From contig OZ024751.1 in the NCBI GenBank assembly GCA_964016885.1, positions 7,936,001-8,000,000 of the forward strand: a stretch of 64,000 nt of DNA, in the 5' to 3' direction. This document shows positions 263-53,233 of the stretch, one piece after another. Source of the stretch: Eledone cirrhosa. Taxonomy: Eukaryota. Made by a program: the position numbers and the translations under genes. The notes beneath the pieces are model-generated. The model ran no database searches, was not told the origin of the DNA, and worked only from the letters and a program-made list of their open reading frames with translations. The stretch's first letter is position 1. Every line of letters begins with the position of its first letter.

Positions 263-271
263 CGCGTGTCT

Positions 272-420
272 GTATATAATATTTAATATAGAAATGGTTT
301 CTATAGGACTAGAACTGTTTCATTCGAAGGAAATCATCAGGTAAGCCAGAAATGTATACTCTACTATGTATTGAGTACCTTATTTACAGTGGGTACACCC
401 GATTGAAACCGGGATACACA
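272..420. mobile_element. Short HHR-bearing repeat remnant (family E), partly inverted
   Basis: Minus strand 308-345 reads CTGATGA-tttccttcgaat-GAAA-cagttc, matching 23217-23245 (+). The terminal segment tatgtattgagtacc...gggata recurs at ~4655-4712, ~23290-23345 and ~35045-35105. Confidence 0.6.
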
Positions 421-2758: not shown

Positions 2759-3896
2759 CTATTGGGGTGATAACCCGTTTAGTTTTGGTTTAAATTTGTT
2801 AAGGAATAGATTTTCTTTGTTTATTCTTTGTTGTTGTGTGAACGAATCTGAGCACTTGTAGAAGGGGAAGATTTTAAAGTTGGGTAGTGTCATTCCTGCG
2901 CAGTTCGCAATATGGCTGCTCAAGGGGATTTTTCTTGTGTTAGCGTCCCGGATTTGTTGGCGGTGGATGGTCATTCTTTTGCGTAATGAGGTGCCCGTCT
3001 GTCCTATGTAGTTGTGTTTGCACCCACCGCAAGTTATTGCGTAAATCAAGTTCTCCGAGTTGCAGGTGAAATTGTTTTTTACTGTAAATGTTTGGCCATC
3101 TTTGAATGTAAATGTTTGTCCTTCAGTGAGGTAGAGGCACGTTCCACAGTTTGTTCTACCACATTTGGTAACTGTAGGGTTGAGGATTGGTTTGGGTATA
3201 TTTGGTCCAGTGAGAATGCGTTTAAGTGATTTGGGTTGTCTTTTACTTTTAAGGATCTTGTGTGTTTCAAGAATAGACTTCATTTTTACATCTTTAAGTA
3301 GGATGGGGAGGTTTTTGTGTAGGTGATCAAACATTTCGGTATTTCTGGGGTTGAAAGTGGATACATATGGCAGGGTGTTGAGTGTGGTTTTCTGTTTTGG
3401 ATTGTTAAGTTGATGGGGATTTAGGTGTTTTGCCCTGTCTATTCCATTGTTGATTATTTCAAGTGGAAAGGCTCTTAAGATAAGGGTGTCTTTTAGTTCC
3501 TTTAGTCTTTGCTCCCGTTTAGGTGGATCTGATACTATGGTACATATACGTTTGGCCAAATTGTAAGGAATGTTAAGTTTTGTATGTTTTGGGTGACTTG
3601 ATGTGAAAAAGAGGTATTGCTTGGAATCTGTGGGTTTATAGAATATATCTGTATCTAATTTCCCGTCTATTACAGAGATGAGAATATCCAAGAAGGCTAA
3701 TTCCTTAGGATTGGATTCCATTGTGAATTGTATGTTATTATCTATGTTGTTTATCATGTTTTTAAACGTAGTAAGTGAGTTCATGTCTTCTTGCCATAGG
3801 ATAAAGCAGTCGTCTAGATATCTTTTCCAATTGGCTTTGAGGTGTGTGTGGAAAGAGTCTCCAAATAAGAGAAGGGACTGACTGTATATTTGTTGT
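2759..3896 (-). CDS. PLE reverse transcriptase (C-terminal part) plus GIY-YIG endonuclease, 5'-truncated
   Basis: WKRYLDD RT motif, LAFLDI, TDIFYKPTD..QYL..SSHP thumb, KCGRTNCGTC linker, NLIYAITC..C..NYIGQT..LRKRM..HR nuclease. Frame is open to the stop. The N-terminal ~60 aa of the listed ORF is inverted-pLTR/microsatellite read-through. Confidence 0.92.
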
Positions 3897-3967
3897 ATGT
3901 GTATATATATATATGTGTGTGTGTGTATGTGTGTATGTATATGTATGTGTGTGTGTATGTATGTGTG

Positions 3968-4004
<37 letters not shown>

Positions 4005-4352
4005 GTATATGTATGTATGTGTGGATGAAGGTATGTGTGTATATATAGGTGTAAGTGCACTAAATCCCTTTCTATCACGCTCCACTCTCCTACCCATCAC
4101 AGGAAGATATGTGTATGTATATTGCTTCCACCCCCTCACTGACCAGCAGCTGGCGATTGCTAAATCTGACCTTTATAAAATAACCCACACCCCAAATAAC
4201 TTCTCATTCACTACCAGAAAGGGACACAGCAGTCAACCTGTTGTTGCTACCAAGATGAAAACTGCTATGAAATCCCACAATGAATTTTATACTTGAATTT
4301 TCAAGTCTCAAATTTTAACTCTTCGTATTATTAATTTTTCTTAATATTAATC

Positions 4353-7212: not shown

Positions 7213-8395
7213 CAGTGAAACGAAATTTCATTTCTCACTCTTAGTACGGCTGACACCTAAATATAATTATGTATACGTACATACATATGTATGTACAGAC
7301 GTACAGTAGTATGTATATATATACATACATGCACATATATATATATGTACGTATGGGTTTACCGAACATTTATTATAATGCTCTGTTTATTTGTAAACAC
7401 CCTCCCCGAATTACGCCGTACAGTGTTCGGCAACCATCGTCGCCCTTTTGTTCAAGACTGACAACGGAACGATGAACTAGAATCAAGCTTATTAGCTATC
7501 GTCAGCATCGTATACCTTCCAGTTAGACGATTAAACGTTTGAAAGTATATACTTTCCTCATGCATAGTGACGGCTAAGCAGCCTAATTTGCATATCGAGT
7601 GAGTTAGTCGGCCGAGCGTACCGAAAACGATAAATGGAAAAGAATGAAATGAAATTTCATTTCTCACTCTTAGTACGGCTGATACCTAAATATAAGTATA
7701 TATACGTACATACATATATGTGTACAGACGTACAATAATATGTATATACATACATACATGAACACATATATATATGTACGTATGGGTTTACCGAACATTT
7801 ATTATAATGTTCGGTTTGTTTGTAAACAAACAACCCGAAATACGCCGGTTTTTGCCGAACACTGTACGGCGTAATTCAGGTTGTTTGTTTACAAACAAAC
7901 GCAGCATTATAATAAATGTTCGGTAAACCCATACGTACATATATATATATAGATATACATGTGCATGTATGTATATATATATATATATACATACTACTGC
8001 AAGTCTGTATACATATATGTATATAAGTATACATACTTACATTTAAGTATCAGCCGTACTAAGAATGAAACATGAAATTTCATTTCATTCTTTTCCATTT
8101 ATCGTTTTCGGTACGCCCGGCCGACTAACTCACTCGATATGCAAATTAGGCTGCTCAACCGTTAATATGCATGAGGAAAGTATATACTTTCAAACGTTCA
8201 ATCGTCTGACTGGAAGGTATACGATGCTGACGATAGCTAATAAGCTTGAAAGTAGTTCATCGTTCCGTTGTCAGGGTTGAACAAGGGGGCGACGATGTTT
8301 GCGGAGCACTGTACGGCGTAATTCGGGCTGTTTGTTTATAAACAAACCGAGTATTATAATAAATGTTCGGTAAACCCATACGTACATATATATGT
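7211..8395. mobile_element. Tandem and inverted ~430-bp HHR repeat (family A, retrozyme-like)
   Basis: Unit repeats at ~7217 and ~7646 (minus sense) and flips at ~7848 to plus sense. HHR at 7470-7510 (-) and 8222-8262 (+). Octamer ATGCAAAT at 8139-8146. Confidence 0.85.
8222..8262 (+). ncRNA. Minimal type I hammerhead ribozyme (family A)
   Basis: cgatg-CTGACGA-t-agct-aata-agct-t-GAAA-gtag-TT-catcg. Perfect 5-bp stem I; other copies have the palindromic CTAG stem III. Confidence 0.8.
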
Positions 8396-9392
8396 GTGTG
8401 TGTCTTTATTTCAAATGATTAGTGACGAACGCAGTCGGTCGAGTATAAATGTTACAATAATATAACCAACGGTTTTATGAGAAAACTGATAATGGATTTA
8501 AATTGCCAACTGTTTGATGTCATCTTACATTGAATGATATGATGGTGTGATTGATTACGTTGGGATTTATATATATTCAAGCAAGATGCATTTATGTAAC
8601 ATAAAACTGTTTAATTTCGAAAGCCGTACAACCAATTTCAGACAAGACAGAAAGATAGACGGGTGGTTAAGCTGAGCAAATACTATCAAACATAACCTGT
8701 TATCCTTGTAATGGGCATCATTTTAAATCTCCTTCATCACAACGAAATCGTTTGTTTCATTCCAAATGAGTAGAAGTCATACGTAATCGATTATTTGTAG
8801 TGGAGATATCGTTTCATTCATCCATTTGAATCCATCTTTAACCTCGAAATATCATGTGCCCTTTCTCAGTTGTAAATGCTGATTTAAGCAAGACGTATAT
8901 GGTATTATGTAGTGTTAGCTAGTCAATAATATAGCGTAAATATAAGCCTTAACTTCAATAATGATAATTCCACTTTTAAGCTAAATGAGAGATAAATACA
9001 GACTTCGGATATATTTTACCCATGAAATAATATAAAATCGACTTATAAACATATCCCAAAGTGAAATTTAGGTATTCATTATCGATTGTATAGCAACTAT
9101 CATGAAGTATAACATTCAATGATTAAATTTCATATACCACCTCATTGGGAGTGAAATTCTGCCTGAATAATTTTACAAACATATATCATATAGAGACACT
9201 GATTACTGAGATTTTCATTTTATTGTAACGGGAGAGATAATATTGAGTCGATAAAAATGTCGCATGACAGCGGTGAAATAGATAATACTATGAATATGAA
9301 GATTTGTAATGAGATATGAAAATGAAACATTGACTTCAATGAAACAATGGTGAGAAAATATATCATAAGTTCCATAATTCATGAAGTGCCAC

Positions 9393-28569: not shown

Positions 28570-29540
<971 letters not shown>

Positions 29541-46706: not shown

Positions 46707-49026
46707 TCTGCAAAATCCTACTTCAGTGCCTCAAAAGTGGCGCAGCGGTGACCCTGGCTGTCTGATAGCTACGGTAGCGGGACTCAATGTCCTGGCAGGT
46801 TTTACCATGCTACACAGGTATCAGACTATTGGTCCTAGAGATGATTCATTATCTTCTAGAGTTCAAAAGCTAGCTAAACTGAAGAGGTACCGGCCTGCCC
46901 ACCCAGCCAGTGGGATGGTGTTATCTCATGGCTAAAACAGCACGATGAAAAGGGCTTCAGTACACTGCGAGTCAATCGGGTCACTCCACGACGGCGGAGT
47001 GCAACCCGAGCGACGAGAGACTGCTAAGAATCACAGGTTCTCGAAGGCCGCCATGGAACAGGACTAAACTCGCCATATGCACCTACAACTGCAGATCTTT
47101 GGCAGATGGGCAAGGACTGAACGACCTAATAGAGGAGAAAAGAAGATCAGGTGTGACGTGTTAGGGCTGTGCGAGACCCACCAGAAGAAGAAGGCAAGTT
47201 CGCGATGGCAAGATGGATGCGCCGTGAGACTCGGGAAAGCAGAGGGTGCCAGATCGGTCGGAGGTACAGGGCTCATCGTAAGCAAGGAATGGGCTTCGAA
47301 GGTCGCTTCTTGCCAGTTCATATCGTCACGGATTTGTGTACTGAACGTAAACCTCTCAGGGAAGGCCACCCTAAAGATCGTCCAGACCTACGCTCCCACA
47401 AGTGCCAGCGACGACGATGAATTGGAAGAATTCTGTCGCCAGCCTCACAAAGTGCTGGATGTGAAGTCCACTTAAACAGTCGTGATGGTAAACTTCAACG
47501 CAAAGGTCGGACAGGGACGGCAAGGCGAAGAGTATGTCCGAAGATTCGGCCTAGGAAAGTGAAATGAGAGGGGAGAGCGTCTGGTCACCTTGGCGCAGGC
47601 GAGACGGCTCGACATCGGAAACAGCCTATTCAGGAAGAAGGAGAAGAGATGTACTCGGGTATAGCCAAATTCTGAGCACTGAAAGGAGATCGACTACATC
47701 CTGGTCTACAAGCGATGCATACTGCTGGCCGTCTCCATCATAACGCCATTCAACACTGGCAGTGATCATCATCTGGTGAGGGCGAAGGTCGTCATCGACC
47801 GAATGAGGGAGACGAAGGCGCTGCATTTGACGTCGAAGGGAGAACGCGTCAGGATGGTCAACGAGGCGCAGCTGCAGGAAGCCATTGTGCAGGGAAACTG
47901 GCGTCAAGGAGACGACATAGACGCTGACTACGACTCACTGATAAGGCTTCCGGAAGAACTATAGCACGATGGACAACATAATAACTCTGACACAACTGCT
48001 TGAGCGAGCGAAAGAGTATAAGATGCCTCTTTGCGTGGCGCTCGTAGACTACGAGAAGGCCTTCGACAGCGTCGAAATCAATGCAGTGCTGAACTCGCCG
48101 CAGAGGCAAGGAATCGAGGAGCAATTCGTTCAACTGCTCAAGGAGGCGAATTACGGATGCACCACCGAAATAGCTCTGCTGTCATCACCCGTACGAGTGC
48201 CGGTCGAGAAGGGAGTGACGCAAGGAGATACGATGTCTCCAAAACGTTTCACTGCGTGTCTCAAGCAGATCATCAGAGGCATTGATTGGCAAGGCGGTGT
48301 CAACATCGACGGCGAGATACTTACCCACCTCCATTTCGCCGATGACATCGTACTCATCACTGAAACCACGGATCAGCTTCAGACCATGCTGACGGAGCTC
48401 GACGTCAACAGCTCTGCAGTAGGCCTCAATATGAACCGCATGAAAACGATGTTCATGCGGTCCGACAACGTACCAACAGGTCGAATGGTGGTTGGCGGTG
48501 ATGAGATAGAGAAGGTGGAGGAATACGTCTACCTGGGACAAGAAGTGAACATGCACCGAGACATTGAAATGGAGATCTCGCGGAAAATAAGGGCCGGATG
48601 GAAGGCGTTCAACGGCATAATGGATGTGCTCAAGGGGAGTTTGGACAAGACCACCCGCGCCAACCTCTTCAATAGCACAGTTTTACCTGCAATGTTATAT
48701 GGCAGTCAAACTTGGGCTACAACGAAGAGAGAAGAGCAGAGGCTGGTAACGGCTCAAAGAGTCATGGAGAGATCAATGCTAGGATTCTCGTTGAGAGAGC
48801 ACATCAGAGGCTAAGTCATCAGACAGAAGACCGGCGTGATGGACATCATCACGGAATATATGCGCAGCAAATTCAGATGGGATGGACAGGTCGCCGGGTT
48901 CACCGATAATCGGTGAACTCGCGAGTTGCCGAGTGGTACCCGCGCGAGCGGAAACGACCACTCGGAAGGCCTCCACGAAGGTGGAGTTACGATATTAGGA
49001 ATATGATTGGGACTACATGGATGAGG

Positions 49027-49030
<4 letters not shown>
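46704..49030 (+). mobile_element. RTE-clade LINE, degenerate and internally deleted
   Basis: APE endonuclease (DVLGLCET, IVQTYAPTS, NFNAKVG, EIDYIL, GSDHHLV) joined at ~47944 to RT (GFRKNYSTMD, VDYEKAFDSV, GVTQGDTMSP, HFADD, YVYLG) and WYPRERKRPLGRP..RW. (TA)n on both sides. Confidence 0.93.
47969..48814 (+). pseudogene. RTE reverse transcriptase fragment
   Basis: 281-aa open segment with the canonical non-LTR RT motifs. Confidence 0.9.
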
Positions 49031-49083
<53 letters not shown>

Positions 49084-49113
49084 GTAATCAGAGTTTTTCC
49101 AATAGTAATAATA

Positions 49114-49637
49114 ACATTCGATTCGTTTGCAATTATGCAAACAAGCCTCAATTTTATAGCCATGTCAGTAGAATGAACACTTCATTCATGCTCTTATGTT
49201 GACACGTGAACAGAACTGCATACACTAATGTTTCTGGGTATCACCTTTCATCAGTACAGCTCACTGTTCACCTGCCAAACTGTCAGAGCTAGTGAAAATA
49301 TATGCTACTTTCAGAAATACACAGTGGCTGATCGGCCTCATTTGCATATTAGCAGTGCATCTGCTAATATGCAGATCTGACTGATCGGCCAGTCTGCTAA
49401 TATGCAAATCAGGCTTATCAGTCACCGTGTATTTTTGAAAATAGCATATATTTTCACAAGCTCTGATAGTTTTGGCAGGTGAACAGTGAGCTGTACTGAT
49501 GAATGGTGATACACAGAAACATCAGTGTCTGCAGTTCTGTTTACATGCCAACACAAGATCAATAATGTAGGGTTCATTCTACTGACATGGTTATAAAATT
49601 GAGGCTTATTTTCCATAATTGCCAACGAATCGAATGT
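49114..49637. mobile_element. Fold-back element with paired HHRs and central octamers (family B)
   Basis: ~240-bp arms at 49114-49355 and 49394-49637. ATTTGCAT/ATGCAAAT near the centre. HHR in each arm. Confidence 0.88.
49490..49535 (+). ncRNA. Type I hammerhead ribozyme, intact core
   Basis: gctgta-CTGATGA-atggtgatacaca-GAAA-ca-tcag-tg-TC-tgcagt. Mirror copy at 49214-49260 (-) with a GTA cleavage triplet. Confidence 0.8.
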
Positions 49638-49822
49638 AGATTGGCAGTATCGGTGGAGGGTCGGTCGCCATGCTTTTCAGCATAGTTACGTCCCTTTACG
49701 ATCTGAGTTCAAATCCCGCCGAGGTTGACTTCGCCTTTCATCCTTACGGGGTCGATAAAATAAAGTACCAGTAATGCACTGGGTATTTGCTGGCCTTGTG
49801 CCTAAAGTAGAAACAATTATTA
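49638..49822 (+). mobile_element. tRNA-derived SINE, best-preserved copy
   Basis: A box tggcagtatcgg, B box gagttcaaatcc, core gcctttcatccttacggggtcgataaaataaagtacc, AT-rich tail. Confidence 0.9.
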
Positions 49823-49984
49823 ATATTCCAAAAGCTGACATTACATTTATTTTATTCAGCCATGTAGAACGAACAATTTATTTTATAAATATATATATAT
49901 ATATATATTGTAGTTCAAATTTGGTATAAATGTACGATGCCATAAATCACTCATCATATATGAGAAATTAAGCAAAATCGGTAA

Positions 49985-52619: not shown

Positions 52620-52921
52620 TATGCCTGACCGATTTAACTCACTCAATATGCAAATTAGGCTGCTCAGCCGTTAATTTTCATAAGGAAAGTATATACTTTC
52701 GAACGTTCAACTATCTGGCAGATGGGTATACGGTGCTGATGATAGCTAACAAGCTTGAAACTAGTACATATTTCCTGTGTCAGTGTTGAACAAAAAGGTG
52801 ACGTGGTTGCCTTAACACCGTATGGCATAAATTCAGGCTGTTCAGTTTGTTTACAAACGAACAAAGCGCGTTATAATAAGCGTCCGCTAAACAGATGCGT
52901 GCATATATGTATGTGTACCTG

Positions 52922-52973
<52 letters not shown>

Positions 52974-53088
52974 TGCTACTGTACGTCTGTATACATATAT
53001 GTATGTACGTATACATACATACTTACATTTAAGTAAGTGCCATACTAAGAGTGAGAAATGAAATTTCGTTTTCATTTTCTTCAACTTA
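52620..53088 (+). mobile_element. Family A single permuted monomer
   Basis: Starts just before the octamer (~52648), HHR CTGATGA...GAAA-ctag-TA at 52736-52766, ends at the segment that precedes the start in tandem copies. (TA)n on both sides. Confidence 0.85.
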
Positions 53089-53099
53089 TATATAATTAA

Positions 53100-53233
<134 letters not shown>

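Follow-up and report, generated by a model that had tools for sequence, protein, structure and literature searches.

A head-to-head insertion of a hammerhead repeat

Positions 49078-49884 of the window, a stretch of 64,000 nucleotides from the 3.0-Gb genome of Eledone cirrhosa, hold a decaying head-to-head inverted insertion of a small mobile repeat that resembles hammerhead retrozymes and has Penelope-type ends (Table 1). The two arms, inverted copies of a repeat called family B here, are 85% identical; the left one carries a short 3' end and the right one, past a SINE-like insert, a long one, with (TA)n on both sides. No open reading frame of 150 amino acids or more was found over the locus, and ARAGORN detected no tRNA in the SINE-like repeat. 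The preliminary description had confined the element to 49114-49637; an element does lie there, but it is larger, its left arm extending to 49078 and its right arm resuming beyond the insert and ending near 49884.

Table 1 Features of the inverted insertion and its flanks (window positions 49,030-49,908)
Feature	Position	Strand	Remarks
(TA)n microsatellite, left flank	49030..49077	none	likely insertion target
Left inverted arm, family B	49078..49355	-	"short" 3' end, unit position +269 from the octamer
Left type I hammerhead, extended stem I	49202..49276	-	core start 49254; one stem II mismatch; site GTA
12-bp box TATGCAAATGAG	49337..49348	-	match to host U6-type proximal element
Right arm, family B, first part	49353..49636	+
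Extra copy of the 33-bp octamer-like repeat	49360-49391		inside first part of right arm
12-bp box TATGCAAATCAG	49401..49412	+	match to host U6-type proximal element, p ≤ 1e-5 per site
TCAGT	49418..49422	+	match to host U1/U2/U4/U5 box, p=0.0017; 27 bp 5' of TATA-like word
TATA-like word CATATATT (49445-49452) within predicted hairpin	49437..49455	+
Predicted transcription start	49475..49479	+	49475-77 by TCAG/TATA register, 49479 by box register
Right type I hammerhead, extended stem I	49474..49548	+	core 49496; GAAA 49516; predicted cut 3' of C49529; two stem II mismatches
SINE-like multi-copy repeat, inserted in right arm	49637..49815	none
Right arm, second part	49816..49884	+	~35-bp one-sided tail ending in T-run ("long" end)
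(TA)n microsatellite, right flank	49885..49908	none

The hammerhead assignment rests on the conserved core and its pairing, because Rfam detects none at this locus: over the window no family reached its gathering score, and by E-value only hairpin-type chance matches were returned, with no hammerhead among them. With a structural descriptor, 34 hammerhead hits were obtained in 454 kb against 0-1 in shuffled sequences. The stems of typical family B copies measure 6 bp (stem I, which has a long extension), 4 bp (stem II, on an A-A base) and 3 bp (stem III), and these copies have the CUGAUGA and GAAA core and a GUC site; in family A, a related repeat, a U-U pair forms the base of stem II. Judged from the sequence, the transcript would cleave itself at the hammerhead, and the ribozymes of this copy are probably weakened, stem II being mismatched in both arms and the site of the left arm being GUA. 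Neither arm has a second unit behind it, and therefore no monomer could be cut out here; this single locus is probably a dead copy.

Elsewhere in the window, copies of family A are seen at 7332-8400 (a divergent inverted pair like the family B locus), 28659-29490 and 52635-53156, and the copy at 7505 is without GAAA. A fragment at 2759-4096 on the minus strand has a frame that is, by its motifs, presumably PLE-like RT/GIY-YIG, and another at 47945-48814 on the plus strand is presumably an RTE-like RT. About 20 segments of the window are self-inverted, among them many other foldback repeats; other hammerhead families in the unselected sample also form inverted pairs.

The family B unit is 438 bp long, non-coding and circularly permuted, and runs from the ribozyme through a T-run and three 33-bp octamer-like repeats to the next promoter; some copies exceed one unit (partial tandems, some dimers). 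Genome-wide, first-look candidates number 1,325, and a 34-letter core pattern has 1,142 exact matches, which we take as a minimum for the number of copies. Sixty loci, representing 56 distinct insertions, were surveyed for their ends. Counted from the octamer, the 5' ends lie anywhere between -520 and +92, while the 3' ends form two groups about 35 bp apart, at +267..274 (29 rows) and +297..312 (17 rows), with other positions in 14 of the 60 rows, many of them at the SINE-like insert. An inverted arm is present in 33 of the 60 rows, one short and one long end are combined in 16 of the 17 resolvable inverted pairs, and the flanks are mostly (TA)n. Family B thus bears several marks of the PLE type, namely an inverted 5'-truncated arm, a one-sided tail of 30-40 bp and microsatellite flanks. 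Partial tandems, 5' inversion and such a tail are known for PLEs from the accessible part of Craig et al. (2021, 10.1101/2021.04.23.441226), and by this comparison the end structure of family B fits the insertion pattern given there. Clustering of 5' ends at the predicted cleavage site was considered and is not claimed: some ends do lie close to it, but in at least four insertions they run past it.

The head-to-head arrangement has no design role at this locus. In the preliminary description, the divergent pair was proposed to drive two ribozyme RNAs outward, and box, TATA-like word and core are in fact kept in both arms here. Such a bidirectional unit is nevertheless highly improbable: the box is present in both arms in only 5 of the 56 distinct insertions, so that the divergent layout is better seen as an accident of insertion, the inversion junctions vary over the range of the scattered 5' ends, the arms have diverged to 85% identity, both ribozymes have a damaged stem II, and without a second unit behind either arm no monomer would be excised.

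Several other observations were made on family B copies. The SINE-like repeat entered the family repeatedly at a nearly identical AT-rich place, +233..+255 (window 49637-49815; loci L009, L012, L021, L028 and L240), which suggests a target preference. At L017 the octamer-containing 33-bp repeat has grown to a tandem array of at least 8 copies. At L131 a U6atac copy is joined head-to-head to an inverted family B arm, a fusion that may reflect a template switch between U6atac RNA and family B RNA. A 238-nt contig of a second organism spans the region from promoter to core with 8 differences.

Promoter words in host genes and in the repeats

Host genes were fetched for U6, U6atac, MRP, RNase P, 7SK, tRNA-Sec, SRP, U1, U2, U4 and U5. 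Among 25 U6 loci, 11 without the box described below were read as processed copies and excluded, together with 6 array copies whose box is displaced by an insertion; also excluded were 4 of 5 U6atac and 2 of 4 tRNA-Sec hits without the box, 8 SRP loci with neither box and one U5 locus, and two U2 loci with TCAAT at -58 stood outside the YCAGY scoring matrix. Within the set so defined, a box TATG(C/G)(A/T)AATNAG at -76..-79 is combined with TATA at -30/-31 in 7 of the 9 distinct Pol III-type promoters (three U6 types, U6atac, MRP and two tRNA-Sec), the distance from box to TATA being 46-48 bp. None of the 15 U1/U2/U4/U5 promoters contains this box; all 15 have YCAGY at -55..-58 and most have a TATA-like word near -30. 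The host 7SK and RNase P genes, counted as Pol III-type because of their T-run ends and their usual classification, carry TCAGT instead of the box, at -63 and -66 respectively, 33 and 32 bp 5' of TATA. The box was combined with the Pol II register in none of the host promoters examined.

A distal word, TTA(C/T)(C/T)TCCCTT, is common to host snRNA genes at about -250 to -290 (L031, L032, L033, L046-L060, L133), and AATTA occurs at about -90 in the Pol II snRNA genes; neither is visible in the family B unit. In a U6 array on C19, the SINE-like repeat lies between TATA and start in 6 of the 11 copies fetched (L037, L038, L040-L043) and displaces the promoter.

All the words listed in the preliminary description for the right arm are in place, ATGCAAAT at 49402-49409, GTCACCGTGTA at 49421-49431, CATATA at 49445-49450, TGGCAG at 49473-49478 and CTGATGA at 49496, and the distances from octamer to core, 94 bp here and 88 bp in family A, were confirmed, with 93 bp in the left arm and in typical family B copies. 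Two of them call for another reading. The octamer is the core of the 12-13-bp box that matches the host, and corresponds to the proximal element of U6, U6atac, MRP and tRNA-Sec and not to a distal enhancer. The vertebrate PSE begins TCACC(G/N)TGA, and the TCACC seen here had been likened to it; it is a private substitution, with C in 3 and T in 32 of 40 distinct family B arms, and overlaps the true host word TCAGT, which starts 4 bp upstream at 49418.

Six occurrences of the box in the form TATGCWAATNAG lie in the window, where 0.18 would be expected; they belong to four copies of family A and to both arms of the present locus, and each stands 5' of a family A or B hammerhead core. Genome-wide, TATGCWAATNAG-N76..96-CTGAYGA gave 28,837 matches and the reversed control 0. 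When scored with the matrix built from host genes, the box was found in all eight family representatives (p ≤ 9e-6 per site). Among families A, B, D, E and F, pairwise identity is 93% in the box and 70% in YCAS at box+16, compared with 27% upstream and 34-40% in the spacers, and the TATA-like word and a purine about 30 bp further stay in register across the elements. The proposal that a promoter module is kept across diverged families is supported for the host snRNA-type words, but not, as originally worded, for the PSE, the role of the octamer or the spacing. The weight of this conservation is limited because the families share ancestry and are not independent.

The enrichment of the octamer about 90 bp ahead of hammerheads, which had been expected, is thus seen in the genome-wide count, but most hammerhead families are without the box. 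In 390 kb of unselected DNA, 4 of 30 hammerhead-like hits have it in front; among RF00163 hits the figure is 0 of 18, among the hammerhead hits of 30 GIY-YIG loci 0 of 3, and among those of 20 longer PLE loci 3 of 17, these three being separate A or B insertions. In four PLE loci, hammerheads lie about 390-410 bp behind the RT/EN frames, likewise without the box. Neither an autonomous partner nor homology to PLE pLTRs was seen in the 30 + 20 GIY-YIG loci, drawn from 10,596 first-look candidates. A family E copy adjoining a PLE RT/EN fragment (L196/L289) was considered as a partner and rejected, since no E-type repeat closes the fragment, which points to nesting.

We regard an internal snRNA-type promoter in the element as likely. 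The reading as a whole, that the locus is a decaying inverted insertion whose unit is a predicted type I hammerhead preceded by what is likely its own snRNA-type promoter, has in our judgement a probability of roughly two in three.

Spacing classes and the candidate polymerases

The U6-type geometry to which the preliminary description referred is not that of the abundant families. The distance from box to TATA is 40 bp in F, 41 in D, 42 in A and 43 in both B and E, compared with 46-48 in host Pol III-type promoters, and no TATA was found at the U6 distance in these families (p 0.12-0.67). Through the short spacing, TCAG falls into the Pol II register in families B and A. If TATA is taken as -30, the YCAGY register score is significant in B (-57, p=0.0018), A (-56, p=0.014) and the two arms in the window (p=0.0017 and 0.011); with p about 0.3, D and E do not reach significance, nor does F (0.07). 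The TATA word of family B, CATATA, is degenerate and scores weakly (p=0.06). A host-like 3' box was found in none of the elements (best scores 0.3-5.4, against 8-17 in 14 of 15 host genes; region p 0.2-0.8), and a look-alike in family B failed the scoring.

A search for the cassette over the genome gave 9,105 matches with the short spacing, a pattern that family A mostly escapes, and 114 with the U6 spacing; the control gave 0 for both. Twenty-five U6-spacing loci were fetched, comprising 15 of a family J, one G-like locus and 9 B or E copies with a lengthened TA. All 15 family J loci have TATA at 47, 9 of them have YCA at box+16, which is 31 bp 5' of TATA, 10 have a run of T5 or more at 35-73 nt past the core, and T-G is often found at box+76/77, as in U6. 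The relatives of family G resemble J, and both have the exact geometry of host U6. In J and G loci (L313-L337, for example C1:22607353 and C1:160273774; L293-L302), the box, TATA at 47 bp, the hammerhead and an adjoining T5-T8 run follow one another. From this layout a free hammerhead RNA of about 80 nt is predicted, and it may be speculated that, with the palindromic stem III of J, such an RNA could act in trans as a dimer partner. One upstream module thus exists in two spacings that mirror the two promoter classes of the host.

Because the older families keep the exact geometry, the promoter would descend from a host U6-type Pol III promoter, with TATA moved 4-7 bp closer in A, B, D and E, which are abundant, and TCAG thereby brought into the U1/U2 register in A and B; the order in which J is old and A, B, D and E are young is suggested by the divergence of the copies. 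In a fuller version of this history, a clade of hammerhead retrozymes captured the U6-type promoter and later switched polymerase: the old, low-copy families J and G kept the 47-bp spacing and a terminator directly behind the ribozyme, while in the families that grew to tens of thousands of copies the spacing lost half a helical turn and came to match the U1/U2 register. Pol II would then read through the T-runs into the following unit, and the promoter would travel in the RNA. We consider this switch possible but rather doubtful. Which polymerase serves family B is evenly poised between Pol II and Pol III; the spacing leans to Pol II, and the placement of T-runs together with the shorter terminal ones leans weakly to Pol III.

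The T-runs belong to an alternative in which all families use a plain U6-type Pol III promoter. In family B this would yield an RNA of about 225 nt ending at the T-run before the next promoter, and rare read-through or host Pol II transcripts would supply a template containing the promoter. The box is specific to host genes of Pol III type (7 of 9, against 0 of 15 of Pol II type), J and G show the exact U6 geometry, and runs of T5-T7 stand just 5' of the promoter in the units of A, B, D and E. The first T4 past the predicted start is met at 221 (family B), 354 and 274 nt, although the statistics are weak (shuffle p 0.20, 0.037 and 0.11), and the long insertion ends fall in a T-run that has 4 T in 9 of 30 terminal cases compared with 6 T internally (exactly 6 in 7 of 12 parsed). 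This alternative has to account for a box-to-TATA distance of 40-43 instead of 46-48 bp with no TATA at the U6 distance in the abundant families, and for a promoter that could be carried along only past T6, T5 and T4 runs. We hold it to be tenable, at less than even odds.

Folding of the RNA bears on whether the words act as a promoter at all. For A, D and E, a hairpin is predicted at the box and another at the TATA (z -1.7 to -6.0, against means of +0.4 and +0.1 for host promoters), and some of the conservation could therefore be owed to RNA structure; the modelled hairpins would fit a promoter inside a folded RNA and would equally offer a non-promoter reason for the conserved spacing. The boxes could accordingly be relics of an ancestral Pol III promoter, inactive in the abundant families and kept as hairpins of the RNA intermediate, with transcription by read-through from outside. 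The pairing of stem I reaches 5' of the predicted start, the spacing differs from that of the host, and many hammerhead families spread without the box, as such relics would allow. The box, however, hardly varies whereas the sequence it pairs with does (0.93 vs 0.34), a difference that pairing by itself would not call for; family B has no local folding signal (z -0.4) yet keeps three box copies, and the TATA-like word and the purine about 30 bp beyond it are held in register. We therefore judge relics to be unlikely.

Taking the element to have its own snRNA-type promoter, as we prefer, its propagation may be outlined as follows. Where a copy has two consecutive units, transcription would start about 20 nt 5' of the ribozyme core and run on into the next unit, and the hammerheads would release a monomer with the promoter inside. 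A Penelope-type RT/endonuclease would then copy this monomer, as a linear or circular RNA, into (TA)n sites, and the new copies would be truncated at the 5' end, partially tandem or inverted.

Related elements and significance

The promoter of newt satellite 2 has an octamer and a PSE; that of the Schistosoma Sm-alpha repeats has tRNA-like A/B boxes and is not known to include an upstream snRNA-type module. Newt satellite 2 is, in the papers through which the original work is cited (PMC2220036, PMC6765202), a hammerhead repeat with an internal snRNA-type promoter reported to be used by Pol II (Coats, Zhang and Epstein 1994; Cremisi 1992), a combination like the one predicted here. The present element differs from it, as far as those citing texts describe it, in having the words of an invertebrate host, in an octamer-like box that is the proximal U6-type element, and in related families that differ in spacing class. 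In the Sm-alpha hammerhead SINE-like repeats, according to the accessible part of PMC6765202, the promoter precedes the hammerhead and ends in the 3' part of the cleaved RNA, and therefore only tandem copies propagate. The order of promoter and hammerhead, the fate of the promoter and the restriction to tandem copies are the same as predicted for our element, whereas Sm-alpha is reported there to be transcribed by Pol III.

Metazoan non-LTR retrozymes, in the available texts of Cervera and de la Pena (2020, PMC7229834) and of Li, Clavereau and Pollet (2026, 10.64898/2026.07.22.740005), share with the present repeats a short non-coding unit, a type I hammerhead in each unit, a short stem III, tandem copies and a proposed mobilisation by PLEs; axolotl HHR_Amex2 also shares with family A the U-U pair at the base of stem II. 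Unlike the retrozymes of those texts, family B is mostly 1-1.5 units long, is often inverted and has the A-A pair. A promoter of the element is not discussed in the main texts, where the word occurs twice, both times for T7, in PMC7229834 and not at all in 10.64898/2026.07.22.740005. With PLE pLTRs, as portrayed in the accessible parts of Craig et al. 2021 and PMC6765202, family B has in common the partial tandems, the inverted 5'-truncated copy, the one-sided tail of 30-40 bp and the presence of promoter and hammerhead in the repeat, as well as a bias to (TA)n, stated by Craig et al. for Naiads; it differs from PLEs in having no ORF. By analogy, the element likely works like a non-LTR retrozyme with an internal promoter. 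No paper on this module in a mollusc was found in the accessible literature, outside of which most subscription papers lie.

Abundant transcription of animal retrozymes has been reported for every tissue tested. If some 29,000 or more cassettes carry a snRNA-type promoter derived from the host, the start can be predicted to a few bases for each family, and the two spacing classes predict different polymerases and caps. In plants, according to the accessible part of PMC8287931, the spacing between two shared elements picks the polymerase; if the polymerase switch is true, the spacing of the elements would decide the snRNA polymerase in this animal, too. The 23 aligned host promoters also provide its snRNA promoter grammar, with an octamer-like box at -77 in U6-type genes and TCAGT at -57 or -63, which is usable for U6-driven expression of guide RNAs. 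The host-matching boxes in each arm, finally, are predicted to be what likely lets such repeats switch themselves on.
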